Assembly (NCBI GenBank): GCA_036172245.1
Contig: JAYWIR010000004.1
Location: 2,108,001-2,172,000, forward strand
Length of the DNA stretch: 64,000 nucleotides
Reading direction: 5' to 3'
Source of the DNA: Raillietiella orientalis
Lineage: Eukaryota
Every line of letters starts with the position of its first letter. Position 1 is the first letter of the stretch. The notes below the pieces were generated by a model, which saw only the letters and a list, made by a program, of their open reading frames with translations, was not told the origin of the DNA and did no database searches. Both the position numbers and the translations under genes were made by a program. This document shows positions 4,084-58,959 of this stretch, piece by piece.

Positions 4084-7000
4084 ATGCGCATAAAGATTGC
4101 ATTATTTCTCACATCTTTACTGTGCCGAATCCAAGGCCCTAACAAAGTTGTTATTTCGAACAGATGCCACAGGGCTCGTTCAAATTTAGTGTTAAAATTC
4201 GTTCGTGCGGTAAGTGTTCCTAAGAAGTTTTTCTTTCCACGGGAAGTTCCTAGAAAATTATTCCCATGATGACTAAGTTCAACGTCAGCCTTCCAGTGGA
4301 TTGCCCTTTGCATCCGAAGAGAGATACGTTTTATGTTTATGAAAACAATAGATTACATCTTGGAAATCACCAGTGGAACTGCGGTTTTTGTGGGAAGTCG
4401 TTCTACGACGATAGCAGTCTAGATCATCATCATCACAGAAGACACTCGGGATTAGAAAAAACGGCAAGTAAAGACATGCTTTGTGTTCTCCATTTTCCTT
4501 GTAAATTCAGTAATCATGGGATTTCCATGGTTGCCCTTTCCTCGGGGCTGCTTTGAATGGTCACTGTGCGTAAGACAAATCTCGAAACTGCAGGCAGACT
4601 CTTGGTCGTTTCACGTTTCCCAATTTTCTCATCATCTCTCGGAAAGCAATCCTTGATCCGCTTCCAGCATGTAAAAGAATTCTCAACTTCTGTGCTTGCG
4701 AGAGCACCGATCCATCTCTGAAACTTGCATCTCTTTACAGAATGCCCCGAATTTCGCTTCCAAACAAAGATTCTTGCATGCTAACCATCAAAGAGGTTGT
4801 TCGAGTTGCGCAGAATAGAGATCGACGTTTGGGGGGCCGCCACAGGAGCTGCTGTTATCCTGCTTTCCGGAACGGGAAGCACGAATCCCTATGTGGCGAG
4901 GAATTCTTTCTGAGAAATCCTTAGAGAGTGGACGGATGGAGTTCGCGCACAGCGTCCCACACAACTGGCAAAATCCAAAGTTGCTGTTGGGGGCCTTCTC
5001 AGGAGCGTTTCCTCTGTTCATTTTCTTGGCCTCCTGTTCGTTCACCACGTTTCAGGGTTCTTGAGGACTGCCTGTTACATGGGTGTAGCTTCGAAGGCAT
5101 CAACGCAAAGGTGGAGGACAGTCTGGCAAGTACAGGTGCACGGCAGACTGTCTTTCACTGGTTCGCGATTGACCCACGACCTCACAATGCCGATGCACGG
5201 ATCGATGTCGGTGTTGTGAGTGGCCAATCATTGACTCCTCTCCGACTGGAACCACTCTCCTTTGTCTCGTATAGTGCTGGTGCAGCCTGCAGTTGTTGTT
5301 TCTCCGTTTTCCTGCAAGAAAGGAATCCCACTGCGAAAAAAGTCGACGGCAACTGCTACCACTGCACTGATTTTGCTATTCCAGGGAACGACTCCCGCTA
5401 GGCAAAATCATCGGAATCCATCGTCATCAAAACGACGCGTTTCCTTTTCTCGTGTGTGCATGAATGGATCCCCCCCCCCCTCCCCCGACTGCATCCGAAA
5501 GTTTTCCAAAGCAGAAGCCTATCCGTCCCTCCGAGAGATGGCGAGTGTTCCTCTCCTGCTATATTGTCGTTTCCATCTGCCACCCGCGAGGGGACACGAC
5601 GCTGCCGTCGATCTCACTGGCTCTGCCTTCAATACGTAGAAGGACGACACGTTGATGCAACTACCAGTAGAAACACCGCGTCGGCTTCCAACTGATGCAG
5701 CCCTACGGAGATGGTAGAGGACTCTCCCGCCGATGTTAGCTTGCTCTTCGCAGCTACTCTTGAATCCTCTTGAGGGAAAACTGGAGTCTCTCTTGCTGAA
5801 GCCCAAGATGTACTCGGGAAACACGAGGGCTCAAGAAAACACCCACAGGGGAAGGTTTCTCCTCGCCGCCTCTGCTGCTTTCCTCTTCTTCCTCATTATC
5901 CTGCATCGCGAGTGTCCTCTCCCTGTCCCCTTCTCCTCTATTCTGTTTCCACTCCCTTCCCTCTCTCTCTTGTTCCCCTTCCTCCAAGAGCTTTTTCCTC
6001 GTACTCTGTCGTCTCCCCCATCGGCTGGACCGTGTACGCTTCTCGTGGCAGCTCCCTGAGTGGCACGTTCCTTTCCCTTGCGGACTCAGGCGAAAAGGAG
6101 GGAATGCCGAAGGACGGAGGAACATCCAGTCCTCTGGAAGGAAGGTCTGGGAAGAGACATCACTTCTCCTCGCTTCCTAGCGGGTCCACAGGCGATGCAG
6201 GAAGACGAGCAGAAGATGACAGGATACCGAGGCCCCGCATTACTTCCATCTTCGTCATTCCCTTCCCTTCCTATTCTCTACCTCGACCTTAATCCCTTCA
6301 CGTCCGCCTGCACCCTCTGCTTTCGCAAAGACCTTCTAGGAAATGAGACAGCGGGAAAGCGAGAAGAGGAGCAGCCTTGTTTCCCTCTCTTCACCCTTCC
6401 CGAAAGTGATGTCGGGTCTTTGCACGATCCGGCAGGCTCGCATGCTCACTCCTTTCGCCCATCAAATTCTAGGAGAGAAGCCCTCCAGGGGAAGAGACGG
6501 GCAAGACGGGTAGACCAGCAAACTCGAGGTCTCTTTGGGGATCATGGCCGATCACTTCCGGGAGTTGCTTATCAAAAACTCCGGACCTTCCCAACGGGAG
6601 CACTTCCGGATGGCGTTCCTTTGGGTCCTTCCTTTTCCCTTATTTCCTCCTCTTCTCCGCCTATCAGGGGAGAGCACCCCAGGCAGCGGAGTGATGGTGA
6701 GACGGCAGTCTTCCCTTCCAGGACGAGGACGCCGTTTGCCTGGCCTCCTTCTGCGACGTCCTGCGCTGCAACGCCTGGCAGCGCAGCGCCGAACGGTGGA
6801 CGCACTCTCTGGCGCCTCCTAGCACGGAGCTCCAGACCTGGCGCGCTCTCCCGAAGCGCGAAGCAACCTCCGGGAGGGAGCGCATCGCCTATTCTCCCAG
6901 GGAAGCACCCCTTTCCCAGGAAGCACCTAGGGTCCTCCCAGAAAGCGAGGACGAACAAGGCGAGGACCGCGGCGGAGAGTGCGACCCCACTCAGATGGAG

Positions 7001-10000
7001 GAGTTGCATGGGCGCTGCGTGGTGAGTGCTCGGAGGGGAAGGAAAGGGGAAAAGCGGGAGCGTAATCGTCCCGCAACGATTGCGCCCGTCCCCGGAGGGA
7101 GAGGGGAGGAGGTGAAAGCGAAGACCTGTGTGCCTCCCGCTTGTGGCACAGCTCCTTCCCCTCTGTACCCTTCGGAGTGGAGCAGAGAGAAAGGGGGGAC
7201 AGGAGCGCGGAGTAGCCGCGGCAACGGAGGTAAACGGGAAGCGGCGAAAGAAGAGGGAGAGCAGAGTTTCCCCTGGAGGTGCGCTGCGTTGCGAAAGATC
7301 CGCCAGGTCGGGGAAGGAATCTCCTGCTCCCGCAGGAGGAGGATGCGCTCCCTCGCTATAGGAAGAGGAAGAAGAGAGGTTTCCCGTTTCCCACCTCTCG
7401 CATTCAGAAGAACTGCTCGCCCTAACCCAGGTCTCCCGCACAGGAAGAGCAGAGAGAGAAAGACAGGAAAAAAAACGAAGTCCAGTCCAAATCCAACCCT
7501 ACAATACAGCGGCGACATTTCTCTAAAGCGCTTCCAGTTGCCAACGGGGAAAACGAACCCTCAGGAAAGTTGACCAAAGTCATTATCGCCCCACGACGAA
7601 AGCGAAGCTCGGCGCCCTCGATGCAACGCCTGAAGCATCAACTGCTTCTCGGAGACCGGAGCTGGGTCGCCGATGGGACGAGCACCAGAAGACCGCGGCG
7701 CCGCGCTCTGGGAAGCGATGATCGGGCCTCCGACACCCCCAGTAGTCCTCCACGGAACGTTTGGAACTAGGGAGATTGCCGTGCGTCGGTTCGCCGACCT
7801 CCTTGCGAGCTACAAGCGGATCTTCTGCAGGCCCGAGGGCCACCACTCCTGGAAGAGGTGGTACCCCTTCCGGCGCCGCGGATCAGGTGGTCCTTCGAGA
7901 CACGAGAGAGCATCCGTGCAGCTTGGCTCGCCTTCCTTCTCGGAAGGAAGGCGAGCGAAGCTTCCGAAAAGTTCCCCGCGGGAACGACGAGCGCTGCCAT
8001 AGCCACTCCTTGGATCCCTCGCTGGAATAAAGAAACCCCATGCTGCCAAGGCAACGCGGCAGCCAGCGGATGCGACCACCCCTGCGATCGCGAGCCGCAG
8101 CTTGCACCCGGCAGCCCGAAGTCACTATGGGGGCGCGTGCAATCGCCATGCTCTACAGGCAAGAATTCTGCCGTCAAGTCGGCAGCACGTCAGGTGGTGG
8201 GTTGTGCATTGGGAGGTCCTGCGCCATCCCAGGCGCCACCAAACTTCAAGCAGGCGGGTGCAACCACGCTGCACTCTCTGAAGAGCTCGCGGTTATCTCC
8301 CCTCCCGTCCGAAAAATCGGAGGCAGAGGAGGAATTCAGGGCGCGGAAGGGGGCGTTGGCGGAGCGGCGGACGGGTCGCTGGAAGGGGCTGCTTTGCCGC
8401 AGAGGACCTTCCCCGAAGGGCTGCTGGTGTGTTGCTTTGCAGGCCATGCTGGACACGTGCGTGTCGCCCCTACTGCTGAACCTGGGAGCACGGGAGTTCC
8501 TCGAGCTCGAAGGTGAGTGCGAGGAGGGTGGGAAGCGAAGACGCTGCAAGCAGGAGGTCGCTTAGGCGTCAACAGGGTAAAGCAAAGGGGAATGAGCGAA
8601 CGAGGAGCCGTGCTCCCAGCTCTGCCTGTCCATCCTGCACCCCCCGTCTCCCAGCTTGCAAGACCCCCTTCGTCGCGATTACTTGGCTGGTCGACCGCTC
8701 ACCGCAGGACGACAATGCATGCTCGGAGGCAGCGGAAATTCCGCGCGTTACGCTAAGGCCGCGCCCTCCAGAAGCGCAGGCGACCCGATCCCACAATCGG
8801 GTTCCATGGGGCGGACTGCAAAACCCGGGATAGGCAACGCGTCCGATCCTACGCCCGAGATCGCCTCCCCTCCCTACTCCCCTCCTCTCAGTGCAGCTCT
8901 CCGGCTACGCTTAACTATCTGCCCAGCAGCCCGGACCCAACCGTTCCGTTCCTAGCGAATACATAAGGCGGAAACGAGCGGTAGGAAGCAGGGCAAGCCG
9001 GGCACGACCCTGCCCCACGCCGCCTGAAGGCGCGGCGCTCCACGACGAACCGCCTAGCGAAGGTTCCACCTTGCCCCGCGCTTTCCTTGGCAGGTCGCGG
9101 CGGCGCACGCAAGAGCAGACTACCGCCGGCCTCCGACTGCGAGCGACGCGGACGCGGACGACTCCGCAGCGGAGCTCCGGAGGGGTCGGCCGATCCGGGA
9201 CAGCGTAGCAGAACAAAACGTTCCTTCAAGGAAGGCTCGTGACTTCCTCCCGCGCTGGCCAAGCCATCCGCTTCGCGGCAGCCTCCCGGCCTCTTCCCGG
9301 CGCCGAACGCCGCGTCACCGCTGCCCGTATCCATGCACACCAGAGCAGTCCCCGCTCACGAGGCTGTGAGGCGTAATTATGACAACCACGTGGTCCCGCC
9401 CGGCAACGTGCAGTTGGTCACGGGAGCGACGTTCCCTGGGAAGTGGAAGCGATAGAAGACTCGTGCGGTGCGCGTGCGAGGCGGCCCCCTGCTTCCCGGG
9501 CGATACTCACCCGCACCCTGCTTCTGTTGCGCGGCTCTCCCGCTGCGCGTTCCCGTGGCGGCTGCCTGCGGCCCGCAGACGCACGTTGGAACGATACCCA
9601 CGTGACTTCACCCGCCCACCTTCGCGCGTGCGATCCCGTGCCTGCAAACGACGTGCACGGCGAACGTTCCACGAGAACGAGCGAGCGGCGGCGCTTCCCG
9701 TTCGCGCCTCGATTTCTACCGCTCGGCTGCTGCCTGCTGACGCTTCAAGGACGTCCGCAGACAACGGAACACCTGTCGGGGGCGACATCGGTGCGTGTCG
9801 TGGGTACCGACGCTACCTCTGCGTGCTCGTTCTCCAGGAAAGAGGGCACCCTACGATGCCAGGAAGGGTGTGTGGACGAAGGAGTCCGTTTCTCTCACGC
9901 GTGGGAACAGCTTCCTTATTCCCTCCGAAGGGATCCCCAGGAAGGCTCCAGTCCTCGTCTTTCGGAAAGGATGCCGCTTTCCTGTTACCCCTCTGGAGAG

Positions 10001-11723
10001 AAACCCGAAGGGTCGCTCCCCGAAGGAAGCACCTCTCTGGAGTGACAGCAACCACATCCCTGGTGCTCGACACGGGCTCCATCTTCACAATCGGAGGAAG
10101 AGGGACTCCGAAGGGAACCGGCCCCTAGTCCATTACCGGAAGGACCCCGGACGGTCCACTTCCGACCCCGAGCGCTCCAAGGGGGCACCCGGCATCCCGC
10201 TTCCCCCGTCAGAGACGCACATGAAACCCATGGGCCGACCAGAGTCTCATCTACACGGAACCCACGATGCACGCGTTCCTCCGGCGTGCATCCTGCACGT
10301 GCGGGGGAATTCGAACCCGCAACGCCACGCGCCGCGACCGCAGCCCAACGGCTACAAACGCGGGTCCGACGAACGGAGCGACCGGCTGCGATCCCGACGG
10401 GACGAGCGTTCCTCCAATTCCTCTCACTCTCTGTCCGTCCAGCGTTGGCCGAGGTCCGCGCTCCAAGTACTGTACGTCGGCAGGGAAACGGAGGGCACTG
10501 GCAGCGATGGAGCGCCCCCGATCTTCTGCGTTACCTTCCCTTTCGGGGACGACGGCTGCTTCTGCTGGCCCAGTGCGTGTCCGGGAAGCGCGCGCGCATG
10601 GACACGGGACAAGGAACCGCCTTGAAAAACGTTGCACAGTGCGTCGGAGAAACGGCATTTTCCTAGGCGCGCGCACGACCTGCAGGTGGTGAGCGCAAGC
10701 GGCAGAAGAGCGAGGGTGAGCGAAAGGCAGGCGGACAAGCGCGAAAAGACAGGAAGGGAAGAGAGAGGCGGGGGTGAAGGTGCGCGGCACGCTCCCGAAC
10801 TGCGCCAGCGGCACGCCCACAACGCTCCGCCCCTTTCAACTCCTCCAGCCCGTGCTCCCCTTTCCAGAGGACTTCTACCGACTGACGTGCTGGTCCCTGA
10901 CCTGCGGCGACCTCACGGACGACAAGCTGACCGAGGTGTGGAAAGCGATCTGGCAACTGGTGCTCATCTTGACGGTGACCTTCGCGGTCGGCTTCTACAT
11001 TTCGTGGGTGGTCTCCGAGTAGGTGACGCGCGCCCCTAGCAGCAAGGTGCACGCGCGCGGGCGACACGCCGCTGGAGGCAAGCAGTCGCGAGCGGACGCG
11101 CGATGGCGCAGCTCGCAGGAGCGTGGCGGAAAGGTCGAGTGGACGGAACGTGTCGTGGGGTTCGAAAGGATGGGTTGCCGCCCGTCCACCTCGACACCGA
11201 CCTGCCCGTGCCAAGTCCGCCTCCGCCCGGGCCACGGCAACCAGAGCTGGAGTGGGAGACGCTGCGACGCATGGCCTTGCCCGGGCTCTCTTCGGAAGGG
11301 TCTTTGGAAGTGAAGGATGCCGTCCTTCTCCTTCCTCCCGAAGCAGCCTCCGGCAGACGCGAGCCGCTCCGGCTGACAGCCCGTGCTTTGCAGACTCGTG
11401 AAGCTGGCGCTCGCGTACCGGAGGCACCGGATCGACTCAGCGGGCGCCCAGCGCCCTGACGGCGACGATCACCGTTCATGCGTCCCTGCCGCGCCACGGC
11501 ACCTCCCAAGGTGAGTCGATGAGCGCCGAGCGTCGACTTCACAGATCGACTCACCCTCCTTCCTAGGTCCAACCTAGAGGACGTCGAAGAATACTTCGAC
11601 GCCTCTTCCGATTTCCTCGAACACCTGTCCCCGAACGCCAACGACTACATCTACGTCACGTGCCCCAGGAATCTCGTGAACAAGTTCAAGTCCCTTCGCA
11701 GCAGTCCCTCCGTCCTGCTGTGA
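4084..11723 (+). CDS. Uncharacterised Cys-rich, C2H2-motif, single-pass membrane protein (7 exons, ~376 aa)
   Basis: Hand-spliced exons: 4084-4209, 4254-4463, 6722-7021, 8443-8512, 10868-11018, 11394-11510, 11567-11723. All intron phases are compatible and the total is 1131 nt. Protein order: hydrophobic N-terminus MRIKIALFLTSLLC, then CHRARS, LPVDCPLHPKRD, WNCGFCGKSFYDDSSLDHHHHRRH (C2H2), AVCLASFCDVLRC, CDPTQMEELHGRC, CVSPLLLNL, LTCWSLTC, then the TM segment IWQLVLILTVTFAVGFYISWVV. The Cys spacing matches my recollection of a conserved plant/invertebrate C2H2-like membrane protein family. The intron 2 donor is GC (gcaagt at 4464). An alternative in-frame ATG lies at 4024. Confidence 0.85.
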
Positions 11724-12119
11724 GACCGACGCAGGCACACCTCTCGCCAGCGCGCTCGTTTCCGCCTCGGTGAACGGGCGACGCCACTGCGGGTCGGCCG
11801 CCAGCACGGCAGGCGCCCTTCGCTCCAGCACGAAAAAGCGGAAGGTGCCTTCCACCAGCCGCTGCTTTGGGCACGCGTACGTCGGCGCCCGCCAACAGGA
11901 GGCGCGAACAAGCTGCTTCTTCCTCTCTTCGACGAAGCTTCCGAAAACACCCCCCTTCCCGTGCTCCGTCTCATCTGGCGCTCGACTGGCACCGTTCGCT
12001 CTTCACCCTTCCGAGTCCTCTCGTCATGCCAGCGCCACGCACCGAGACGACAGCCGTGACTGCTGGAAGCATGGCCGACACCAACTGCTCGCTCACGCAT
12101 TCCACGGACGAATGACGAC

Positions 12120-12125
12120 AATAAA
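12120..12125 (+). promoter_or_regulatory. Candidate polyadenylation signal (AATAAA) of the C2H2 membrane-protein gene
   Basis: First AATAAA I found, ~400 nt after the stop at 11723, in otherwise very GC-rich sequence. Confidence 0.55.
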
Positions 12126-15100
12126 CATGGCGCGTCCTTTTGTTCGAGGACGCCATCCGCGGCTCCTACCAGACACCTCACGGCATCGTCGGCCCGCCGA
12201 CGGCTTTCAGGAGGGTTGGGCGCAGTCGCTGATGGAGATCGCTGGCTGCTTCAGCAGCAACAGTCGATCGGCTCCATGGCATCCGCATCGAGTGAACGTG
12301 GCGGAAACACGACGGGCTGGCGTAGCCAACGCGAATCGTTCCCGCTGGGAAATCGCGCAGCAGACACGATTGCCGGCCACCGTGTCGTCCGTCGTGAGCA
12401 ACGTGAACAGCCAATCGTCCGTCGTCGTCTCCCTCGCTTCTTCCATCGCTCTTCACGGCAACCCCCAACACAAAGATCGAGAGCAACAACACACCTTCCC
12501 TTCCACGTAACCAAGAGATGCCCTTTGTGCTTGCCATCTGCAATGCGCCATTGCGTCGCGCGGCAGACGACAAGCAGCAAATGTTCCGGCGGCAGTCGAC
12601 AGCGGGCCCTGATCGTGAGCTGCTTCGCAAACGCTGCTCAGCGTCCCCACAGAGTGACGACGCGCAAATGCACAAATCCTTTCGTCCACTACCTTTCTCC
12701 TGGACGCGACGCGTCGCCGCCGTGCCGATGCCGAATGGGGAGCGCTGGTTTCTCTCGTTGCCTCGCTTGATCTTTCGGGGTTTGGGTTCCGGGGTCCAAA
12801 ATGGCTGCAAAATGGCTGCTGAGAACAACGCGAGAAGACGCAGGCGACAGACGGGCGACCGCACGACACGCGCTTGGGAATGCTGGGTCGAAGACTGCAA
12901 TTGCAAGGGCTGCATCCTTTCCATCCTGCTCTCGTTCCTCACAGCTCGCGCGCCCGCTTCCCGTCCGGGACGGCAGCGCATTTTCTCATCCACGCCCCAT
13001 CGGTCTTCGGGCGTCGAGCAACGGCTTGCAGTGCCGCCCATGCATTCTGTGCGGTTCCAATTCGCAATCCGCGGTCCAGCAAGACGAAACGGCAGCCCAT
13101 CCAACGTTCTCGAGGGACGCTGCAGTCTTGCAGGGTTCATCCCGCGTACACCCACGCGTGGAAAGGCGGAAAAGAGCATCCCGAGATCGAACATCCGGGG
13201 AGCGAATCTTATCGAACCGCCGAGGAGCACTCGGGTATGCTCCAAACAAAAGCTGCTCAGGTTCTCCAGTCGCAGTTTCCGGATAACCTTTCGTGCTTTC
13301 TCTTCGAACGCAGAAAAGGAAATTCAACTCGCTTGGTGCGCTTCCATTCCCCAGGACGATGTGTCGAAGGGAACGCCACGTCGCTGTCCCCAAGATCCAA
13401 ACAAAACCTGATTCATCGACGAGATGAGGACGTGAGCGCAGCGGGGCCTTCTACTCCCGAGAAGGCGGCTTCGCGCAGCCCCGAATGCGGGCCAAGGGCT
13501 TTCGACCTCTCGGCGCGAAACGTTCGTGCGCTTCTTGACCCGGCTGGAAAGCGAGGCGCAAACGGAGAAGAAACCGCCTCCGGAAATCACTTCGGACAGT
13601 GGGGACGAAAGGCGCTTCTTTCGCTTTCAACTTGGGGGTTGGAACTTCTTGGAGAAGAGGAAAACGCGTACGTACCCTCACGCAGAACGCGGGAAGAACG
13701 GAAAAGTCATCAAGAATAAGGCTGCTATGGAAGAGGGAAGAAACAGATTGGATGGACTGCCATCGCCTGAAGATTTTCTCCCCGTGCAACCAGAGTCGCG
13801 CGGATAGGCGCCCCATCAAAGGGTCCGAAATCGGTGCTGCACGGAAAGGTGGCTCGATGGAATGCCTCATCGTGCTATTGGCAAGGAGAGCTGTTCGACG
13901 TTTCTCCCTCCCCCCGTGTAGCTTTTCCGATCGCAAAGTTCCACGGACAATCAACGGTCACGTGCTGCCCCTGCCTTTCTCCCTTCTCTTTTTCTGCAGT
14001 CTGTCACATGTGCTTCTTCGTTTGCGCCGAATCTTGCGTAAGTCGCGACAAGGCGAAACATCGGATGCAACTCTGTCTGCGAGCGCATTTGCTTGATTGC
14101 ATTCCATGTGCACCCGAAGCAGCTTCAGCTGCACGTTGTGGTGCGACAAAATCGCGCGACCTCGTTCGAACGCTTCGATTCCGGAAAGAGCGCTGTCGAC
14201 TGAAACGCCTCGCGTCTTCCGAGGGGAAATCGGCTCGCCAGCAATACGGGGACAGCGACGGTTGACGCCACGGACGCCAACGAGCCCTGCCATGCTACGC
14301 ATTGCCTGTTCCTTGGCAGCCGAAACACGGAAATTCGGCGACACGTGGACCTGGGCGCTTCGAGCTGGGTGCGTTTCCAGAGATTCGATTCCTGGTTTGC
14401 CCATGCACGCACTCGCGATAACCTGCGGCGCGAGTCGCGCTGCCGTTCTCGCGTGAGACGCGAATGCCGAACGCTTCCGGCGATGTGGACGCGTTCATCC
14501 GTCCACGCTTCAGGAGTGTTCTCACGTGGCCGTGTTTGAAAACGCAACCGCACTTCTGCACGAATGGAATGCACTGCACTTGCCGATCGCGGAACCGCCG
14601 AGCGGCAGCCGACCCTTTTCCGGCAGGCGTCTGCCCTGCCTAGTCGAACGATAGCAGCGACTGATCGAGCTGCCTTGCCGCAGCCACCAGCCCACGTTCC
14701 CGACAAGCAACCTTCGGTGTGGTCAGCAGCAAAGAAAGGAAACTGAGACGAGGAAAGGTGGCAGTCAGGTCGTTGCGGAGATGCCCGCAAAGCCACGGTT
14801 CGACGAAGCACCGTTCGCCTAGGTCAACCCCGAACGACAGCGAATGCACGGGCTAGGTCATCGGGAAACGTTCACCGCTTCAGCACGTGACCTGTCCAAG
14901 CGAAAGAGGCGGCATCTTCGAGAGGGCAAGTCGACGTGGAGATTCCGCAGCGCTTACGGCGACCTCCGCTTGACGCGTCGGCGGCGTCCCGCGCGTTCGT
15001 TGCGAAGTCCCTTTCGAAGACCATCCGTCCGTCCACCGAAAATCCGTTGAAGCAAAAGATGCGACGACCGGGTCGTACCGTCGAACCACTTCGAAAGTAC

Positions 15101-18100
15101 GGATCTTCTAGAAGATGGTCCTCGTTGGAGATCGACTTGTTGGGAGATGGGAGAGGCGATGGCCGTACCGACCACCTTCAGCTACACGTCCTGCCCCGTC
15201 CAGAGTTTGCACTTGGGAGACTTTCCCACGCGTAACTCTTGTTCGACATGCCCCTTGGTGTGCGGATGCATCAGCGCAGTCTTTCGAGTCTCTGCGATAT
15301 CGCCAGGAGGAGGTCTTATCGCCTTCGAATCCACGAACTGGGTGGCGATTTCCGAGACGTCGGAGTTTCCAGGCTTCCGGCTCGCGATCACGTGCGGCAA
15401 CTTGCACGACGCTGGCCATCCGAAGATACGGCGGCGGCACCCAGAACAACACCGCAAAAGAGAGTGCCGAAAGTTGGCCTTTACCGACCCACTATCCAGG
15501 TGATGCGCTCCCGGCAATCTGTACTCCCCAGCTTCCGCTACTGAACCGTTCCTTGCGCACCGATCGGATGCAGCAGCTCATGCAACAAGAGAGGCTCTTT
15601 CCGTCTTCCGCAAAACCAAGAGGGCATCGCCCATCGGGACACTTCCGCTTCTTGGGCTCCGTCCCACTTCCCGTACGCGAAGGCGAGAGGTAGCTCGCGG
15701 GAGGATCGCCTTCCTGCTGCTAGGTGACTGGAAGAGAGTGCGAAGCATTCGTTTTCGCAACAGCGCGCTTCCTCGGAGGTAGTTAACGGCCGAACCGGCT
15801 GTGTGGTCCCAGCACAACCGTCCGCCGCGTGCTGGCAGGAGGCTGACCATCTCGCCACATCCGGACCGGCGCCTTCCGCGGAAGGGCTGCAAGGTGTCCC
15901 TCCACGTGGTTACGGGAAGCATCCGCCGCAGCCACCGGCTGCGTCGCTTCACCTGCCTGAATGGGTATTGTAGGGACGCTGGGGGGTTGAGACGGCGTTC
16001 GCAGCCGGAGACACCCGTTCCGACGTAGCCTTCGTGTGGCGACGGCGACGGGCGATGGACGATGGCGCCACGAACGGGTCCCGTCGTCGTCCGCGCGCGG
16101 TGCCTTTCCAACCAATTTGCTCTGCATCCTGGTGGGGTTTTCGTGCCGTCTTCCTGAGCGTGCTCCTTCCCAGGGTCTTCCCCGTACGCTGCAGCGCGTA
16201 CGTCTTCTGCCTGATTTGGTCCGCCGCCGAATCGCGAGCTCCCGGAAGACTTCCTGCTCGCCCTTCCGATTGCACGGCCCCAACACGCAACTCATGCCCT
16301 TGTTCGTACGGGTCGCGTCCGAACTCTCCCTTCCTGCTCGCCGAAGGAGATCATGGACTGCCCGAGGGAAACCTGGTCGGCACAGAAAAGCCCCCTCTTT
16401 GCTGCAACGACGTAGTCCTCTATGGAAAGCCGGGATAGCCATTAGCCCGAACGATGGCAAATTCACTGCGAGATGGCAGGAAAAAAAAAAGAAGAAAAAG
16501 CGGTTGCGTTGCTGGCGCGTCAACTGGCTGACCTTTCCACTCTTCCCGAACGACTTGTCCGCTGGACAGATGTGCTTGCGTGGAATCCCGTTGCAACAAG
16601 TCTTGATGGTGCGCGCGTCGGAGGCCGTGTGGTTACGGTCCCCTCCGCTCGTGGTGCCATGCACGCGGGTTCGAATACTCCGAAACGAATCGACGAAGTG
16701 CGTGGTGGGTTGGAGTTCCTCCTGCAAGATGACTCTGGTTGACCTCTGTTCATTCGTGTGCCGCACTGGTAGCGCTTCAAAGCGGATGTCCCGGACGAGG
16801 GCCTGGACAATGGGAGTCGAACTTTCTGTCGCGCTTTCAGCAATGAAGGCGTGGAAGTTTTCTTCCGTTTGCGAAGGAGCAAACTCCCCACTGCGAGGGG
16901 AAGCTCCGCGTCGTACTGACGAAATAGGTGTGTAGCCACCATTGCAGTGAGTGCAGCAAAGCGTGCCGCTCGCCTTGCTCTGGCGTTCGCGTATGTCTCC
17001 ATGCTTCCCCAGATGCGTGGCACGTCTCATCGTGGCGACCGCCTCTTTGCGCCGTCCCATGCGATTCACGCCTCCATCCCTGGACCAGGAAACGTGTACG
17101 GGTCGCCACAGTGCGACAGGTTCGGTGGCGAGGGAGGAACCTTGCCTCGCCTGCTTCTGGAGTGCGTTGCACTCCGGTTCTCGCGGGGACGTTCGAACAT
17201 GTCCCTGACCTGAAGTTCTCGGAAGACCGCCCGAACGTCTCTTTCGGACGCCTCCTCACGCGTGACGGGATGTATGCCGCCGTGACGACCGCCGCTCTGC
17301 GCTGCATCCACGCAATGGGGGCGGCATGAGGAGCCGACGGCACAGGCCTCACGTGACAACAGGGAAGCAGCCCTCCCCTTTGTTTCCTCGTTCCTAAGCA
17401 TCGCCTCGAGAGAGATGGTCGCACACGAGGAACAACCGGAAGAAGCCGGTGCCTGCACCCTTCTTGCCTTGAGAGCATGCAGAGGAAACGCGCAAGCACT
17501 CAGGAATCCGATTCGCTTACTTCTGAAACTTGTTGGTACCTTTTTTGTTCCCTTCCCTCTCCCCTGACTTCCCTGCGAGCATTCCTTTCGGAGAATTTAG
17601 CGGGCGCAGGGCTCCACCGGAACACGCGCAAGTGGCGTCACTGCGCTGCCCCGACGGAAATTCCGGACGATTCCCTCGCGAAATTTCCATTCTGCACAGC
17701 AAACACTTCCCAGTGTGACCTGGTGGAAACACTGCCCCGGAGTTGACCGCGATCACCTCCTCCTTCTTTGGGCTCACTCCTGCTCGGCAGCCCCCAGGCA
17801 GGAAACTTCCCGCGTCCCTCTTCCGTTTGTTCGCAAGACCAGGTCCTGCTTCGGACTGCAGTCCGCTCCCGAGATGGACTCGCGCCAACGTGCCAGCTCT
17901 CCCATCGCTGGCCTCCGTCTTGCACCTCGTTGGATGCACCGGCTTCTCCGCACAGCGAGATCTCGGAGCGCTGCTGCGCGTCCGCGGCCTTCACTCACGT
18001 GTCCGGTGTCACCTCCGAAAATTCAGGTTGCGCGTGATGCGGTCCGTCAGCTTCCCGCCGCCCGTGATGTTGTCTACGCAGGCATCGCCGACGAAAACGT

Positions 18101-20480
18101 CGGACTTTCGCTCGTCTGATAGCCATCGCCACCTCGTTAGCGACGCGCCTTATGCGCGTCCCCACTCTTCTTCGTCCGTAGGTTTCCTGCATCCCCTTTT
18201 CGTTTTTCGCGTCTGAGATGGCCACCATCTGTCTCGGGATCTGCGCGCCTCGCACGCCGCCTCGGACGTTCTCCCAGAGACCGCTCCAAATCTGCAGACT
18301 TGCCCGGCGGGCGCCAAGACGGCAAACTTTTCCGGGTGGTCACGTAGGCAGGAGCCATCCGGAGTGAAGACCTCGGTCGACACTCACGACGCTGGGACGC
18401 CACCTGGACTTGCGCGCGTGTGCTCCGTAGGAGGGCGGGCGACACTCGTGGATCCAACATCGAATTTCGCAGTTCCGGATCCCTGCCGTGGTCCGCCCGT
18501 CCTCGGATATGCAAGAGGCTGGGGAAGGAGGTGCACTCTCCGCGTCCCGTTTTTCGTCTTGGACGGCGACCTAGACCTTTTCTTGACGCTGGAATGAATG
18601 GAGCTGCAGCTCGTGTGTTGGGCATCTGCCTGCAGTCGAGGTAAACCTGTACTGCTGTAGGCCACCTGGTTCCCACCTGCACGTCATCTCGTCCAGCATG
18701 CCACGGAGACAGCGATGGTCGGACTCACGCTGCCTCATCCACTGCGGACTGCACATTTGGCGGGTGGCCAAGCTGGCCAGGAACAACGGATGGATCTACG
18801 GTAGTGCCTGGTTTCAGGCAACCGTGCCAAGGAGCCAAGCGACGAACAGGTTCGACGCTTCCTTTACTTGCGTGACAACAGCTGGACGCTCCAGGAGATC
18901 CTGCAAGATTCGGTGAGGAGTGAGAAGATTCGCTCGCGGCGCAGCTGCCGAGCGCTGGCGGGGTCCGCTCGCAATTCGCCGCTCCTTCTCACCGGGGGAA
19001 CGTCCAGCGAAAAGAGCCCAACGGATGGCTTCGCACCCTCGGGAATTCGGATGCCTTGCAAGCATCCCGCCCTCCTTCGTCTTCGCGTGATAGATGGGTG
19101 GCACGCTATGGATCGATTTTCAACCACCGTCGGCGCGCCTCCGCGACACGGATGTCGAACGCTCGGCGTCGACCTTGCCTTGGCCTAATTTGCCCGTTCG
19201 TCGCAATGACAACGCAGCCGTGTCGTACTTGCGTTCTCGCGCGTCACGTCAATAAGGCGATGTGCCGCGAGCGGAAGCACTGTTGGTCGCCAAGCTTCCT
19301 GTCCAACTTTTGGCGAAAGCCGTGTCATCCGGGGAGAGCTCGGAGAATCGCGCTTGGCGCTTCTCCGTCGATCCCGCCCGCATCGTTCCCGTTCGTGGAG
19401 CACGCGAACCGGGAAGCGGCTCTCGCGTCAAGCGGGATCGTTTGCGAACGGTTCCCTTGCAACCGCCGGTTGCTCAACAGCCCGGGACGTGTGGTGGTTC
19501 TCTCTCCTGTCGCAGGAGTCTCCCTTGCGAGAGCACGACTTGCCCGTGAGGGGATGAGGGCTGAGCCGCCGCTCGGCAAGCGGAGGAGAGGGAAGCGCAT
19601 CGCCGAGTTTCGACAAACTGGGGGTCCGGTGAGACGGGAAGCTGAGGGAAGGATCGTCTCCGTGTCGCGCGCGGACAATGCAGGAGAGCATGGAAATGCC
19701 GGCAGGAAAGTGCGCGCGCCCGAGCACGAGGGTTGCGCCCGCAGTTGTCGATGTGCAGGTGGCGCCATCCCCGGACCGCCTGTGGTCTCACCACGTGCAG
19801 ACATGCGTGTGCGGGGCTCCCTCCCTCCAAGCATCGCCGACCTGCTTCTACACTCGTCCGCGCTATTGACGTCATGTCGTCGCACAGCACTCCACATGGC
19901 CACCGAAATCGACGCGCGTCCTTCCTTTTCCCCTTCCCTGCTTTCCTCTCTCCTCGTCCTCTTCCTTCGAAAAGACAGAAGAGCGAGAAGAGGGAAAGGC
20001 GGTTCGCTTCCTTCGTCCGCGGCGCCGCGCTCTGCACCTCTGGAAAGGCGACCGTCCGAACGCGGTGTGGCGGGAACTCAAGAGCAGGGGACTGCGGAAC
20101 ACCACCAGCATGCCATCGCGACCGGCTGCCCCCGGACGGGAACGATTCCGAACGGCAGCCTGCGCAGCCTGCTTGGCGGGCGGAGGGTCGCCTGGCCAAC
20201 GTGCTCTTGCTGTCTGGATGCCAGGAACTTGCGGCAGCCTCGCCGCTCAGCACCGCTCCTCTAGCTCGCTGGTCCCGTTCGTGGGTGCCGAAGCACTGCG
20301 TCGGAGAGAGCATCCGCCTTCCGCAACGTTCGGCACGTCCCCTCTCGCCCGGCTCTTCCCGGAAGAGGGGCCATTCTTCGCCACGCATCCTGGCACCTGT
20401 GTGTCCTGCGGCTTGGCACACTGACGTTTGCTTTTGCGAACGAGGAAACGCGGACGCTTCGCGTTTCCCGTTTGCTTTGG

Positions 20481-21934
20481 CATGTCCACGGCTCCCATCC
20501 TCCGCCCCCTACTTTTTGTTTGCCCCGTCCCAGTGGAAATCAAGAAAAGGACGAAGGATCTCCTCTGCATCGCCCTTTGGGGCAAGGGGAGGCCCCGAGT
20601 CTCTTTGAAGGACTTGTGCGCTCCGCGTCGGGACGGCGATCTTAGCCTCCTGACGCTGGAGCGCGTGGAAATGCATCTGCGATGGCGCACCATGGCCATC
20701 GTAGCGAAGATGTGGAGCACCCCTTGGTGCATTCCGGCCCGCCTCCTCGCCAGCTGTGTGTCTCGGTGCGAAGGACTCACGTCTTTTCTTCTGTGCCCCG
20801 GCCGGAAGATCCGAAGATGCGGCCTACTCCTCGTACGCATGGCAGCCATGGCGAAGAACGGTTGGATGGTTTGCTGCCCCGCCAACTCCCCCGCCTGGCT
20901 GGAGGAGAACATCGGCACGTGGGCAGGGCCACGAGGAGCCACGAGACGTGGATACGCCTGGTACGCGGTCTCTACGCCCGCTGCACCCTGCAGGACCTAC
21001 TGGAGTGTCCTGCTAAGAGCACGTGGGCAGAGACGACCTGCCTAGCTACAGCGTTGCCCTTTCTGAGGAGGGCGTTTAACAGCAGCCGGACGCCACGGTG
21101 GCAGGTCTCCTGCCGTATCGCAGGACGCGAGAAGTTGATTAGCGACTGGACCATGAGAGAACTGGCGGACGCCACGACCCCGAGCGTGCAGCCGAGAGGA
21201 CTTTTGCGATGGGGCGAGCTGCTCACCATCCCAATGGATGAGCTGAAGGTGCCCTCTGTTTTAAGAGAATCGAGGATCCTACTCCTTAAGTGGCAAGAGT
21301 CGGCGTTGCTCCTGTTGCACTGGGGTTTACCCTGCAACGCACGGCGCTTCCACTGGACAAGGGGAGCTGTGGATCCTGCGTGTGCCAGGTGCGGGAATCG
21401 CTCCCCCACTTCATCGTTGACTGTGCTGCCCTCCAACCCCTTTGGAAACGGTTTGGGAGGACCCTCGGGCTCCCGATGGGCAGCGCACCCAGAGACGTTC
21501 TTCGGTATCTCTTCGTGCGGGATGCCCTACAGCCAGCCACTGCCCTAGCAGCATTCTGATGCGTCCGAGGCGTCGTGGCGGCCTGGAGCGACGCCAACAA
21601 CGAAGATCGGGACATGAACGAGAGGGATGCCATCCAGCATGCTGTATGCTTCCTGCAGAGAGCTGCCCGATGGCCCGATCTGGGGAATTTGCGGATGGAC
21701 CTCGAGGGCTTCCTTCGACGGATGAACCCTCCTCCCAGTGAACTGTGATCCCTTTCTGCCCTCCAACTTCTTTTTGTTTTCCTTATGCTTTATTTTTCTT
21801 TTTGTTTTTTCCCCCATCCCCTTTCACTGCCGAGGAGAGTCACCGGCAGGTCCGGTGCCTATGGCCGTGAGCGGGGCCTTGTAACGCGATTGTAGAATTC
21901 TCAATAAACGCACCGGGCGTACCCCGGTGACAAC
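20481..21934 (+). mobile_element. 5'-truncated, decayed Tx1/L1-like non-LTR retrotransposon (post-RT region, CCHC finger, 3' UTR)
   Basis: ALWGKGRPRVSLKDLCAPRRDGDLSLLTL resembles the L1/Tx1 post-RT motif FxWxxxxPRVxxxxLCxPxxxGGLGL. LHWGLPCN...CARCG and, after a frameshift, ESLPHFIVDCAALQPLW form a zf-RVT-like CCHC finger. A T-rich tract, AATAAA (21903-21908) and a terminal hairpin follow. The segment is absent from arm B and is flanked by degenerate direct repeats (catgtccacggc / aacgtccgcggc). Confidence 0.85.
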
Positions 21935-22001
21935 GTCCGCGGCACAGCCCTGTGTCGTGCAGCGATCGGTTCGGCCATCGCAGCAGCATGCGGCGGAGAC
22001 T

Positions 22002-22097
22002 CGCCGCGCTTCCGATTCCTGCCCCGCGCCGCCGGCAGGCACCACCCCGCGCCGCGCTTCCGATTCCTGCCCCGCGCCGCCGGCAGGCACCACCCCG
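22002..22097 (+). repeat. Tandem duplication, 2 x 48 bp (single copy in arm B)
   Basis: cgccgcgcttccgattcctgccccgcgccgccggcaggcaccaccccg occurs twice. Confidence 0.95.
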
Positions 22098-22869
22098 CGC
22101 GCGAGCTGCCGACAACCAGCTTTCCGCAGCTCCACTCGCCTACGAAAGAGGCGTCTTCGTCGCTCGTTGTGTGTGCCACCGGCGCACGGAGAGCCGCAGA
22201 GGTGGTCGGGACCTTCGGACTGCGGAACAGACCGCGGGCGGTGGCCAGCTCGCAGTGCGCAGCTTCCCCTTACCCGAAGAGACCCGACAACACAGCCATC
22301 CGGACCGCGCCTGACCGACCGCACGCCGCACTTTCGGCGGGTCGCAAAAGAAAACGCAGTTCTCCCGATGGACCGCCGCGCGCCCATACCCGTCGCCAGT
22401 CGCTCGCAACCGTTGGCTTCTGCCTCTTCTGCCACGTCCTTCCTTTCGCGGAGGCATCGTCGTTCCGTCGACGCGGACGCTCTCCCCGAGCTCGCCCCCC
22501 ACGCCAACCCGCGGTTTACCGTGCCAGTCTCGCCTGGCTGCCACGCCTGGCCTCTTGCAAGGAAGGATGATGGATGGCCGCGCAGCGCGTTCTGGATGCG
22601 GATTCGTAAGTGATGGAGATCGGGCTTCGGGGAGATGCTTCCTCTTCCGTGGTCGAACGACACTTGGATTGCGCTGCTGATTGGATCTTCAGGCGAAACG
22701 GCATGCGTGGGGAAGAGCGCTGCTCGCACGACGAAGGGTTCTGCGCTTTTGTTGAGGAGCAAGAATCTGCGTTGGTCCATGAAGAGAAAGAACGCGTACG
22801 TATTCGAACGTGGATGAGAGGGAAAGAAAACGGCATTTGTGGGAGTGTTTCTCTTCATAGCAGCGTGGC

Positions 22870-23927
22870 GGTTAAAGGGAACAGCCAACAATCCGTCGCC
22901 GGGCGTGGCCCTTGCGCTTTCTCATGGGAAAGACTGCTGGGCGACAGATGGGTTGTGGACGGTCTACCGCCGTACAAACTCGGTTGTATGGCTGAAGAAG
23001 GCGAAGGACACCTGATGGAATGTTCACCGGAACCCTGAAGATTTCCTGCCTAGCAATCTGAAACAGTATCTGGCTTGGGGAAGGAATGCAGGAGTTCTGG
23101 AATTGGCTCCGACCAGCTGCTGCACCCTTGTCCACAGGTAACGCGGAACTCTCTGAAGACTATTTGCTGAGTTGGGCTGGTGTGAATCCTACAGGAAGAT
23201 CTCGAGTGGCTCCCAGTGCTGAATTACAACAGGGCCCTTCCCCTGAACTGACAGGTGTTGGCACTTCTGCTGTTGCACTGGGGTATCCCGTGCAACGCTT
23301 GCTGCTCCTACTGGATCTAGGGGACACTGGGTCCCAACTTTGCAGGTGCGGGGAACGGGAATTCCTCCCGCACCTGCTCTTGGACTGTGTTGCCCTTCGG
23401 ACCAGGTGGTTGCGTTACGCAACTGCCCTAGTTGCGCCGACGGACAATTCCAAACACGTAATAAATTGCCTCTTTGTGCGCGATGCCCTTTCGCCTGTCT
23501 CATCCCCCAGCAGCTCTTTGCTGCCTACGAGGGATTGTGGTGGCCTGGAGCTACGCAAGAGGAGGACGGAGCGATAGGGACGCCATCTGCTTCGGTCTTC
23601 GCTTCATGAGGACTGCAGCAAGATGTCCCCACCTGAGGCATTCTTGGATGGAACTTGCCGGCATCCTGTAAAGGATGCAGAGGACGTCCACTAGCACCCG
23701 GTAATCCCTTCCTTAACCCTCCCAATTTTTTGTACATATTTTTTTGTTTTATTTTTATTTATGTTTGTCCCCTCCCCCTCCGCTTCCGAGTCGAACCTCG
23801 CCTGCCTGAGTGCCGGTTACTCGGCAGGTTCTGAGCATTTTCGGGCAATGTAGGACTGATGGGCCTACACATGTATGTTTAGTTAATTTTTTATAATAAA
23901 GTTCCCAGCATGACCCGTTGATAAACC
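22870..23927 (+). mobile_element. Second 5'-truncated, decayed copy of the Tx1/L1-like family
   Basis: Across frameshifts it reads LLLHWGIPCNA...CRCGEREFLPHLLLDCVALRTRW...CLFVRDAL, homologous to the copy at 20481-21934. It has the same 3' layout (T tract, cccct..ccga motif, aataaa, ...cccgttgataaac). The 5' boundary is approximate. Confidence 0.8.
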
Positions 23928-26900: not shown

Positions 26901-27736
26901 GTTCATTTGTTTGCAAGTATGTTTTGAATGTTAACATGAACCAATCTTTGGTTCACAGCTTCCCAAGCAAGTCTCCTTTAGGTCCAACATTGCGCTAAAT
27001 ACTCACGTTGATCTATAATAAGCATAAAACATAACACACGATATGTATGAGCTTAGATATATTTCAGAAAACAGTCTCGTGTTTAGTGAAGACACGTTTA
27101 GATCATTTATTTCGTGTTGCACTCGTGACTTTTTACCAGAGATTGACATTGCATGGATATCTTCAAATTGATGGCTTTTCCCTCTTGTCACAATATCTGT
27201 TCAGAGGTTTTAGAGCATCATCCAAGAAACCTTGCTGTTTCAGTTTTCTCAAACGAAGAAGTAAGGACAACCCCAAATATTCTTTCCAGGAATAATTCAT
27301 GGTCGATGGAAGACCTTCATGAAGTGAAAGAAGAATTCATCTTTTTTTTTTTTTTTTTTTTTTTACAAGAGATAGAGACAAAGTTTCAACCGTGCTTAAT
27401 TTGGAGATATGAACGATTTTAATTCTTAGTTTGCATTAAAATGAGGTGACTTCTACGAATTCTATTTGCATTAAGCATTGCAATGAATTCCCTACACAAT
27501 TCATTGGGTCCGTCTTACACTGAGCGAGTGCGGTGCACACACACATACAAAAAAAAAAAATTCGAATCTTTAGATTAGGGAAGACCTGCAGATGCGAATG
27601 CTGCTCACTTTTCTGATTTTTGTGATCTCAATCATCCTGAAACTAAAGGTAATGATGAACTCTATTTTCAAGATTTGCGCGACACTTTGAAACTTTCCAT
27701 TCGAGTTGTGATTCAATGTACAGATAATGCACTTAC

Positions 27737-29970: not shown

Positions 29971-29976
29971 AAAAAA
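29971..29976 (-). terminator. RNA polymerase III terminator (T6) of the tRNA-Gly gene
   Basis: TTTTTT lies 4 nt downstream of the discriminator base on the minus strand. Confidence 0.85.
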
Positions 29977-29980
29977 GGCA

Positions 29981-30051
29981 TGCACCGCCCGGGAGTCGAA
30001 CCCGGGTCGCAAAGTTGGGAGCCTTGCATGATACCGCTACACCAGCGGTGC
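29981..30051 (-). tRNA. tRNA-Gly, anticodon CCC
   Basis: GCACCGCTGGTGTAGCGGTATCATGCAAGGCTCCCAACTTTGCGACCCGGGTTCGACTCCCGGGCGGTGCA. Acceptor stem GCACCGC/GCGGTGC, anticodon loop CTCCCAA, T-loop TTCGACT. It closely resembles metazoan tRNA-Gly(CCC). Confidence 0.96.
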
Positions 30052-34032: not shown

Positions 34033-34134
34033 TAACACACTACGCCACAAGTTGAGAGGATTGTTTCGTAATTGTGTTCAGAATAAACACAGTTCACGAA
34101 AAACAACCCTCTCATCTTATGACGTAGTGTATTA
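34033..34134. repeat. ~100-nt imperfect hairpin / palindrome
   Basis: taacacactacgccacaagttgagaggattgtttcgtaattgtgtt pairs across the loop cagaata with aacacagttcacgaaaaacaaccctctcatcttatgacgtagtgtatta. Confidence 0.85.
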
Positions 34135-58870: not shown

Positions 58871-58959
58871 TCCCACCAGCCGGTAGAAGCGCTTTCGCTG
58901 CTCGTCCGCGCACGCGACGTGTTCCGCGACGGCATGTGTGGCGGTGTCGGGGATCGCGC

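Follow-up and report, generated by a model that had tools for sequence, protein, structure and literature searches.

A gene crossing into a GC-rich domain that probably predates its partial inverted duplication

GC domes are usually ascribed to long-term allelic GC-biased gene conversion (gBGC) in recombination-active DNA. The mouse gene Fxy/Mid1 is said to straddle the pseudoautosomal boundary, its highly recombining 3' part being GC-rich at all site classes and its 5' part not; comparison with relatives has reportedly dated the shift, which is linked to an established recombination boundary. The gene described here is like Fxy/Mid1 in that its 3' part is GC-rich and its 5' part is not, in this case known from one sequence alone.

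Wallberg et al. (2015, PMC4406589) report that recombination-linked gBGC drives GC heterogeneity in the honeybee. The locus studied here resembles the situation set out in that paper: the genome is AT-rich with local GC-rich regions, coding, intronic and intergenic sites move together, and CpG is undepleted, honeybee gBGC being reported to favour CpG sites. It is unlike the honeybee in having edges that are sharp over a few hundred bases and a larger amplitude, and in that its mechanism is one that we infer.

For primate X palindromes, Jackson et al. (2021, PMC8981503) give an arm GC excess of 4–5 points, a GC gain of less than 1 point in 29 My and equilibrium GC values of 60.9% for arms and 39.9% for flanks, and they propose that GC was already elevated when the palindromes formed. 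The inverted repeat described below shares with the palindromes of that account large inverted arms, a unique spacer, >99% identity over most of the arms and arms that are GC-richer than the outer flanks. It differs in that the excess is about 23 points (0.62 versus 0.38–0.40) rather than 4–5, in that one arm lies within a larger GC domain reaching 3.5 kb further, and in that the genome is arthropod-like. A further likeness is to the human Y palindrome P6, for which GC-biased arm-to-arm conversion is reported and whose arms are >99.9% identical (Hallast et al. 2013, PMC3723533); P6 differs in its arm GC, on which the effect is small or mixed, as summarized in PMC8981503.

The window (the whole 64,000-nucleotide stretch of DNA that was analysed) contains two GC/CpG-rich domains and two long inverted arms with a unique spacer of about 22 kb between them. 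The following features have no assigned strand.

4800..24600, GC/CpG-rich domain A; GC about 0.61, gradual rise on the left, sharp drop at 24.6 kb
4800..8356, GC-rich shoulder of domain A, unpaired; GC 0.58, CpG o/e 0.86, lacking a counterpart on the arm B side
8357..22862, arm A of the inverted repeat; 14.5 kb
24601..44840, AT-rich spacer; unique, GC 0.40
44.84–59.2 kb, GC domain B; weaker shoulder out to 60.2 kb
44841..58878, arm B of the inverted repeat, equated with GC domain B; GC 0.62, CpG o/e 1.16
57596..58612, segment present only in arm B; about 1 kb, GC 0.64, CpG o/e 0.87

Both domains have a GC content of 0.61–0.62, against 0.35–0.40 in the flanks and spacer, and CpG o/e is 1.06–1.13 inside the domains and 0.46–0.78 outside. 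All site classes (third positions, introns and intergenic DNA) move jointly, GC at third codon positions (GC3) rising from 43% to 86% and non-coding GC from 0.35–0.40 to 0.61. The sequence-only reading had already stated that introns and intergenic DNA shift too, and windowed GC and CpG o/e both do change in non-coding DNA. Its domain limits (~5.5–24.4 and ~44.85–59.1 kb) were close to the 4.8–24.6 and 44.84–59.2 kb found here, its abrupt boundary at ~44850 is now placed at 44841, and the spacer that it called AT-rich has a GC content of 0.40. At 44841, precisely where arm B has its inner end, GC climbs from 0.42 to 0.60–0.68 within 400 bp, and the outer end of arm B lies within about 0.3 kb of the GC-domain edge. 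The 1.7 kb past the inner end of arm A (22863–24600) is moderately GC-rich, partly made up of a LINE fragment (about 23170–23900). If TE fragments are set aside, GC-domain edges fall at three of the four arm ends.

The domain A edge cuts through a small membrane-protein gene, the exons of which, together with two copies in arm B, are as follows.

4084..4209, plus strand, exon 1; 42 codons, ATG at 4084, donor GTAAGT at 4210, signal-peptide-like start, AT-rich side
4254..4467, plus strand, exon 2; single C2H2-type zinc-finger motif, AT-rich side
10868..11018, plus strand, transmembrane-helix exon; within arm A
11567..11723, plus strand, last exon; carries the stop codon, within arm A
54512..54668, minus strand, copy of the last exon in arm B; 11523–11720 and 54712–54515 are 100% identical
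55217..55367, minus strand, copy of the transmembrane exon in arm B; the ORF at 10720–11019 and 55515–55216 are 100% identical

Exons 1 and 2 are separated by an intron of 44 nt ending in AG at 4252–4253. The database matches to exon 2 were C2H2 fingers in every case, and a weak DUF7838 match to this region (E 0.0047) fell under the cut-off. It is plausible that exons 1 and 2 and the 3' exons form one gene, because the predicted splice phases fit from 4467 to 10868 and from 11018 to 11567. A homologue search for the gene found none, and exons 3, 4 and 6, which had been called earlier, hence stand without homology support; a search for an orthologous locus in a relative also found none. GC3 is 17/42 in exon 1 and 31/70 in exon 2 (counted over 4254–4463), the same counts as before, and 45/49 in the transmembrane-helix exon (10868/10870–11018) and 41/51 in the last exon (11571–11723), where 46/50 and 42/51 had been given. 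The best 30-codon window of the transmembrane-helix exon has GC1/GC2/GC3 of 0.53/0.30/0.93. Taken together, GC3 is 48/112 for the AT-side and 86/100 for the GC-side exons (43% versus 86%; Fisher p = 5e-11). Contrary to what had been suggested, the switch within the gene does not track the duplicated domain: GC climbs at ~4.8 kb, 3.5 kb ahead of the start of arm A at 8357.

The arms, 8357–22862 and 44841–58878, form the inverted duplication that had been proposed. The arm core (9451–19980) has 7 mismatches across 10,520 aligned bases (0.07%) and the whole arm alignment 119 in 12,876, identity being >99% over most of the arm. Divergence is 2–3% in transition zones and beside a 1.4-kb insertion in one arm, and 13–20% in the outer kilobase, which is still colinear. 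The arms also differ by indels of 30–48 bp and by the arm-B-only segment, in which no Pfam match was obtained (57596–58612). This graded divergence fits repeated arm-to-arm gene conversion, and the rise from 0.07% in the core to 13–20% at the outer edge is as expected for the repeated exchange that the earlier reading envisaged. The signs that favour conversion over a very recent duplication, all from a single assembly, are the diverged colinear edge, the transition zones, the LINE-adjacent divergence and a decayed target-site duplication. Exons 1 and 2 are present once and the 3' exons twice, the arm B copy being a gene fragment; arm B would be the derived, partial copy, because only arm A has the complete gene context.

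Past 8357/58878 no homology between the two sides was detected, even with 7-base words, the alignment stopping abruptly after a last block of 83% identity. The 4800–8356 shoulder is thus unlikely to be a faded arm. Its inner part (6501–8356) has a GC content of 0.615, and it holds exon-like, GC3-rich ORFs with no partner on the arm B side. The earlier remark that GC-richness extends beyond the alignable arm A is borne out (3.5 kb), but the formerly longer duplication offered for it is at odds with the lack of homology beyond 8357/58878.

Three 5'-truncated LINE 3' ends lie in arm A, in its inner flank and in the spacer.

20496..21932, plus strand, 5'-truncated LINE 3' fragment; arm A only, GC 0.60, CpG o/e 0.85
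23170..23900, plus strand, second LINE 3' fragment; inner flank of arm A, Cys-His motif, GC 0.53
32400..33100, plus strand, third LINE 3' fragment; AT-rich spacer, GC 0.53 over 32570–32871

The first is flanked on both sides by a probable 14-bp target-site duplication, the copies of which agree at 10/14 positions and which is single in arm B (45709–45722). The three fragments match one another at the protein level (E 1e-9 to 1e-21) and could be aligned over about 450 columns; their C..C...H....C motif is presumably that of a LINE ORF2 C-terminus, and no Pfam match to a reverse-transcriptase or endonuclease domain was found in them. They are intrinsically 53–60% GC and raise GC bumps even in the spacer, which also contains a tRNA-Gly, an IBR/RBR E3-ligase exon and a 5-kb element with 457-bp inverted ends. 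None of these three fragments has a partner in the other arm with which to pair. Counted over 400 columns by parsimony, with a star tree assumed, the S>W:W>S ratios were 20:13 and 28:17 for the domain copies and 39:11 for the spacer copy, a marginal difference (Fisher p = 0.055).

The sequence-only reading attributed the GC island itself to conversion between the arms. On this account, AT-rich DNA was duplicated first, both arms then gained about 23 GC points through GC-biased conversion between them, and the GC-rich stretches beyond the arms are remnants of arm that have lost their partner. We consider this unlikely, although the graded arm identity points to conversion, three of the four arm ends match GC-domain edges, and the GC contents of arms and flanks agree with the equilibrium reported for palindromes of primate X chromosomes (PMC8981503). 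In 400-bp windows within the domains, the median GC is 0.623 for unpaired or diverged DNA (n = 14) and 0.618 for homogenised DNA (n = 30; p = 0.58), and the diverged edges have a GC content of 0.63–0.67 in both arms. Over 26 windows of arm A, GC drops slightly with rising arm identity (Spearman −0.41, p = 0.04), and the sites at which the arms differ show no AT/GC asymmetry (52 versus 42 of 119). The arms exceed the AT-rich spacer and the flanks of arm B in GC but not the adjacent unconverted domain DNA, and the 3.5-kb GC-rich shoulder has no partner where homology abruptly ends. CpG behaves differently, its o/e being raised only in homogenised DNA: 1.18 against 0.85 in unpaired GC-rich windows (p = 2e-6; GC-matched p = 7e-5), where the unpaired set comprises three places, one of them a TE fragment, and germline methylation differences would look alike. 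In the honeybee, CpG sites are reported to be preferentially fixed by gBGC (PMC4406589), and the higher CpG o/e could be a minor effect of biased conversion. We also modelled the time needed for two-copy biased conversion to take GC from 0.39 to 0.615. This value was out of reach at a GC transmission of 0.70 or less; with a transmission of 0.75–1.0, 0.56–1.97 neutral W/S substitutions per site were needed between unconverted copies. Since the most diverged alignable arm DNA has K = 0.14–0.23, the model needs 3–10 times more divergence than the arms record, which counts against a conversion-built island, as do the 4–5 rather than 23 points in the palindromes documented in PMC8981503.

The remaining explanations have less in their favour. 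A break-prone, recombination-active dome could be a common cause, GC-rich by allelic gBGC and prone both to inverted duplication and to ectopic conversion, with neither of these building the other; GC-rich sequence has been proposed to be more prone to palindrome formation (Jackson et al., PMC8981503) and an arm end does coincide with a dome edge, yet we hold this to be very unlikely. A broader version, that GC domes and large palindromes are mechanistically linked in this genome, is decidedly unlikely in our estimate: break-prone domes would spawn inverted duplications that exchange with a bias favouring CpG and GC (CpG o/e 1.18 versus 0.85) or, more boldly, the palindrome would sit at the equilibrium of biased arm-to-arm conversion, at 0.62 versus 0.39 GC. 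That the assembly misleads, with arm B a false duplicate (for example, an alternative haplotype) or the core identity produced by polishing with cross-mapped reads, and only dome A real, appears highly improbable. The window is without N and both arm B junctions run into unique DNA, while the 1.4-kb LINE insertion, the 1-kb arm-B-only segment, the 30–48 bp indels and the 13–20% diverged outer kilobase make the arms unlike a collapsed or duplicated haplotype. Finally, a block of GC-rich transposons or foreign DNA is scarcely credible despite the intrinsic 53–60% GC of the LINE fragments. LINE homology is confined to the three short fragments, none of 130 further ORFs of the arms and flanks reached the Pfam cut-off, and spliced host exons lie inside the domain, their third positions being shifted further still than the DNA around them. 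Coding periodicity is confined to the exons of the gene, strand skew is absent, and the arms hold a single 48-bp tandem repeat; the GC-rich domain cannot be recognised as a block of genes, TEs or satellite DNA.

We find it on balance probable that a GC dome of ~20 kb predates the copying, and that it was partly duplicated and its arms then homogenised by conversion. A native GC/CpG-rich domain of about 20 kb (4.8–24.6 kb) would have covered the 3' part of the gene; we infer recombination-linked gBGC as its cause, as well as the order of events. About 14.5 kb (8357–22862) would later have been duplicated, in inverted orientation, to a place in AT-rich DNA 22 kb downstream; the copy would have kept the high GC content and brought the 3' exons of the gene with it in dead form. 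Arm-to-arm conversion would afterwards have held most of the arms near-identical, with the outer ends and one-arm insertions escaping; it would not have created the GC-richness, at most helping to keep it and possibly retaining CpG. A native dome is preferred because the domain outruns arm A by 3.5 kb on the gene side, because GC is independent of pairing and because LINE copies that cannot pair show a marginal context difference (p = 0.055).

Some observations sit less easily with a native dome. The duplication breakpoint coincides with the dome's sharp right edge, which is left unaccounted for. CpG o/e is higher exactly in the homogenised DNA, as a CpG-favouring conversion bias would give. 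The arm and flank GC contents (0.61–0.62 and 0.38–0.40) equal the primate X palindrome equilibrium, so an equilibrium palindrome is numerically possible and, if that reading were true, this would be by far the largest composition shift ascribed to ectopic conversion.

Most likely, the composition shift is of a known kind, a GC dome cutting through a gene, together with a conversion-maintained palindrome. The locus is a natural experiment, in which copies of the same GC-rich sequence can be compared in native and in AT-rich surroundings. Its arms hold both still-exchanging and escaped parts, so that effects of position, pairing and sequence origin on composition are separable; at this locus GC content is independent of pairing and CpG retention depends on it. 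Given an outgroup or population data, the locus could serve to measure the contribution of ectopic conversion to an arthropod GC domain that was already in place.

Most of the window lies at 0.33–0.40 GC, and two blocks stand out from it at 0.59–0.66 GC, at ~5–24 kb and ~45–59 kb. The two GC blocks have CpG observed/expected ratios (CpG o/e) of 1.06 and 1.13; outside them the ratio is 0.46 (left flank), 0.78 (spacer) and 0.66 (right flank). In 200-bp steps, the first block (domain A) starts at 4.8 kb, where GC steps up from 0.43 to 0.54; it is at 0.63–0.66 by 6.6 kb and stops at 24.6 kb, where GC falls from 0.53 to 0.36. The second (domain B) begins with a rise from 0.42 to 0.60–0.68 within 400 bp, at 44.8–45.2 kb, as the sequence-only reading had described in placing an abrupt boundary at ~44850, and ends with a fall from 0.68 to 0.47 at 58.8–59.4 kb, followed by a weak shoulder reaching 60.2 kb. 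Strand skew was looked for across the window and none was found; the window contains no N bases.

Two pairs of exons of a putative small membrane-protein gene lie on either side of the left edge of domain A:

Exon 1, 4084–4209, plus strand: ATG with a signal-peptide-like start, donor GTAAGT; 17/42 codons ending in G or C
Exon 2, 4254–4467, plus strand: one C2H2-type finger; GC3 31/70 over 4254–4463
TM-helix exon, 10868–11018, plus strand: GC1/2/3 0.53/0.30/0.93; GC3 45/49
Terminal exon, 11567–11723, plus strand: GC1/2/3 0.57/0.23/0.80; GC3 41/51

The two 3′ exons are the ORF stretches in the GC domain with the strongest plus-strand codon periodicity, and their GC3 counts are close to the 46/50 and 42/51 counted earlier by hand. 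Combined GC3 is 48/112 in exons 1–2 versus 86/100 in the two 3′ exons (Fisher p = 5e-11); with the blocks seen in windowed GC and CpG o/e, this contrast confirms that the switch in base composition is real. The four exons plausibly belong to one gene, since the splice phases are compatible from 4467 to 10868 and from 11018 to 11567. At just 44 nt, intron 1 (4210–4253, GTAAGT...AG) suggests that introns in this genome are very short, and the same gene may also hold one of >6 kb.

Searches for homologous proteins with the exon 2 and TM-exon peptides found no homologue, and the clusters that a protein atlas gave were all either unnamed or of the C2H2 type (best score 0.92). An exhaustive HMMER search with exon 2 gave 6866 matches, the 150 listed being all long proteins with 8–42 matching stretches over the finger part. 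These look like multi-finger C2H2 proteins, which mask any orthologue among the matches listed, so that none is discernible by HMMER for exon 2. For 60 plus-strand ORFs lying between 3.8 and 12.6 kb, no Pfam match rose above the cut-off; the five weak sub-threshold matches were to DUF7838, LapA_dom (a TM helix), IS481 zipper, EBNA2 and HypF.

Neither a gene cluster nor a TE block, satellite or foreign insert, the GC domain is non-coding host DNA. Among ORFs from the arms and flanks, none matched Pfam at cut-off (0/45 of at least 130 aa, with one sub-threshold match, and 0/85 further ORFs), and tandem repeats are negligible. Exon-like coding periodicity was not found elsewhere in 11.7–24.7 kb, where the maximum of GC3−GC2 is 0.38 (40-codon windows) versus 0.57–0.63 in the exons (30-codon windows). 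On these three grounds, foreign, satellite or TE-block DNA was rejected as an identity for the arms.

The surrounding AT-richer DNA carries other features:

2–529, plus strand: terminal part of a Bax-inhibitor/TMBIM gene (Bax1-I, E 1e-39), local CpG o/e 0.34
29980–30052, minus strand: tRNA-Gly(CCC), in the spacer
35151–35510, plus strand: IBR-domain exon of an RBR-type E3 ligase, in the spacer

The spacer also holds a 457-bp inverted repeat (36872–37328 and 41385–41841, 99% identical) with ~4 kb of 44–46% GC between its copies. Together, the pair and its interior resemble an element of ~5 kb bounded by long terminal inverted repeats; no ORF of at least 70 aa within it matched Pfam.

A repeat search and blastn define the large inverted repeat as arm A, 8357–22862, against arm B, 58878–44841. 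Divergence between the arms is graded along arm A.

Arm-to-arm divergence by arm A interval (mismatches/aligned positions)
8357–8536: 23/177, 13%
8633–8960: 58/292, 20%
8961–9450: 14/490, 2.9%
9451–19980: 7/10,520, 0.07%
19981–20495: 11/515, 2.1%
21933–22862: 6/882, 0.7%

A 1437-bp segment (20496–21932) is private to arm A, and ~1 kb at 57596–58612 (64% GC), without similarity elsewhere in the window and without a Pfam match, is private to arm B; it may be an insertion in B or a deletion in A. Indels of 30–48 bp also separate the arms. One of them reflects a GC-rich 48-bp tandem repeat that differs in copy number, with 2.3 copies at 22002–22112 in arm A and one unit fewer at 45603–45722 in arm B. 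The arms combine old, still colinear edges with a core that is almost identical and with higher divergence next to the heterology, as expected of arm-to-arm conversion of an old duplication, and they have very probably been homogenised by gene conversion; on this point the divergence pattern supports the earlier proposal. The same pattern does not fit well with a simple duplication in the assembly, and we regard arm B as an assembly artefact as improbable. Exons 1–2 are single in the window, whilst the two 3′ exons are present twice, in copies that are 100% identical, so that arm B would be the derived copy, carrying a gene fragment.

Three LINE fragments, which resemble each other at the protein level (E 1e-9 to 1e-21), served as a probe of compositional context:

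20496–21932, plus strand: arm-A-only LINE 3′ end, 5′-truncated, matching the other two at the protein level
~23170–23900, plus strand: LINE fragment in the arm A inner flank, protein-level match
~32400–33100, plus strand: LINE fragment in the spacer, protein-level match

Each is a 5′-truncated 3′ end from the same LINE group; the copies have a 3′ tail in common, are intrinsically 53–60% GC and contain a Cys-His motif that we take to be the LINE ORF2 C-terminus. A 14-bp stretch lies on both sides of the arm-A-only LINE and is single in arm B; the two copies match at 10/14 positions and are a probable decayed target-site duplication. Star parsimony was applied to 400 gap-free columns of the three copies to assign substitutions, in DNA unable to pair between the arms. 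This gave 13 W>S and 20 S>W changes (W, A/T; S, G/C) for the arm-A-only copy and 17 and 28 for the inner-flank copy, compared with 11 and 39 for the spacer copy, a 39:11 excess of GC-to-AT changes. The odds ratio of the two domain copies versus the spacer copy is 2.2 (p = 0.055), a marginal value that depends on the star-tree assumption, and it points to a possible position effect on base composition that would not need arm pairing. The inner flank itself (22863–24600, GC 0.53–0.57) consists in part of the fragment at ~23170–23900, and the spacer copy likewise raises local GC in a bump; because part of this flank is a LINE with its own GC-richness, it was dropped as clean proof that the dome of high GC overruns arm A.

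The sequence-only reading had proposed that the composition switch tracks the duplicated domain, and that a GC-biased form of gene conversion (gBGC) between the arms, after duplication, raised GC and so built the island. Conversion of this kind predicts that arm ends coincide with GC edges, and three of the four arm ends do fall at GC-domain edges once the LINE at ~23170–23900 is discounted. The switch, however, occurs at 4.8 kb, 3.5 kb ahead of the start of arm A, and the intervening shoulder (4800–8356, GC 0.58, with 0.615 in 6501–8356) has no partner beside arm B. The last homology block before 8357/58878 has 83% identity and then ends abruptly, with nothing recovered by 7-base words, so the shoulder is not a faded arm surviving beside arm B, and its interpretation as an eroded arm still visible by arm B was rejected; blastn (word 7, +1/−1 scoring) found nothing convincing as faded homology beyond either pair of arm ends, 8357/58878 or 22862/44841. 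Within the domains, median GC in 400-bp windows is 0.618 for paired DNA (8961–20495 and 21933–22862, n = 30) versus 0.623 for unpaired or diverged DNA (5600–8960, the LINE private to arm A, and arm B's private segment together with the B edge, n = 14; p = 0.58), and GC drops slightly as arm identity climbs (Spearman −0.41, p = 0.04; 26 arm A windows, each 500 bp long). Active conversion does not go with higher GC. Of the 119 sites that differ between the arms, 52 are AT in A but GC in B, 42 show the opposite, and 25 stay in one class; the counts are symmetric and were set aside as a sign of bias, being informative only with an outgroup.

The timescale was explored with a two-copy model in which a new mutation reaches both arms with probability (1±b)/2 and the flank equilibrium is 0.39 GC. 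With a GC transmission of 0.70, GC* is 0.60 and 0.615 is never attained; transmission of 0.75–1.0 requires a time in which unconverted copies would come to differ by 1.97–0.56 neutral W/S substitutions per site, against K = 0.14–0.23 in the most diverged alignable arm DNA. Raising GC after duplication would thus call for very strongly biased conversion, in a palindrome whose age exceeds several-fold anything that the arms record. A study of primate X palindromes (PMC8981503) reports equilibrium values of 60.9% for arms and 39.9% for flanks, equal to arm and flank GC here and in favour of conversion as the cause, but arm GC there is 4–5 points above the flanks, the simulated gain is <1 point over 29 My, and the authors suggest that GC was already elevated at palindrome formation. 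We therefore judge it unlikely that the arms came first and conversion then made them GC-rich, and a common cause linking domes and palindromes is more doubtful still. The most likely history, which we favour with moderate confidence, is that a native GC dome would have come first and part of it would later have been duplicated in inverted orientation, with conversion preserving its GC-richness rather than creating it; this leaves the match of arm ends and GC edges as a coincidence.

A contrast in CpG content weighs on the side of conversion as the builder. Between equally GC-rich regions (8961–22862 versus 5600–8960, 20496–21932 and 57596–58878), CpG o/e is 1.18 (IQR 1.10–1.23) in homogenised windows and 0.85 (0.78–0.90) in unpaired windows, the latter drawn from three places only (p = 2e-6; GC-matched, p = 7e-5; LINE left out, p = 1e-4). 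In honeybee, gBGC is reported to act on transitions and favour CpG sites (PMC4406589), so the contrast is the kind of trace that biased arm-to-arm repair favouring CpG could leave; differential germline methylation would give the same contrast. The locus is a further example of two known things, a compositional domain rich in GC and a palindrome that conversion probably maintains. What is new is small, namely that CpG retention follows pairing whereas GC does not, and it is worth follow-up.
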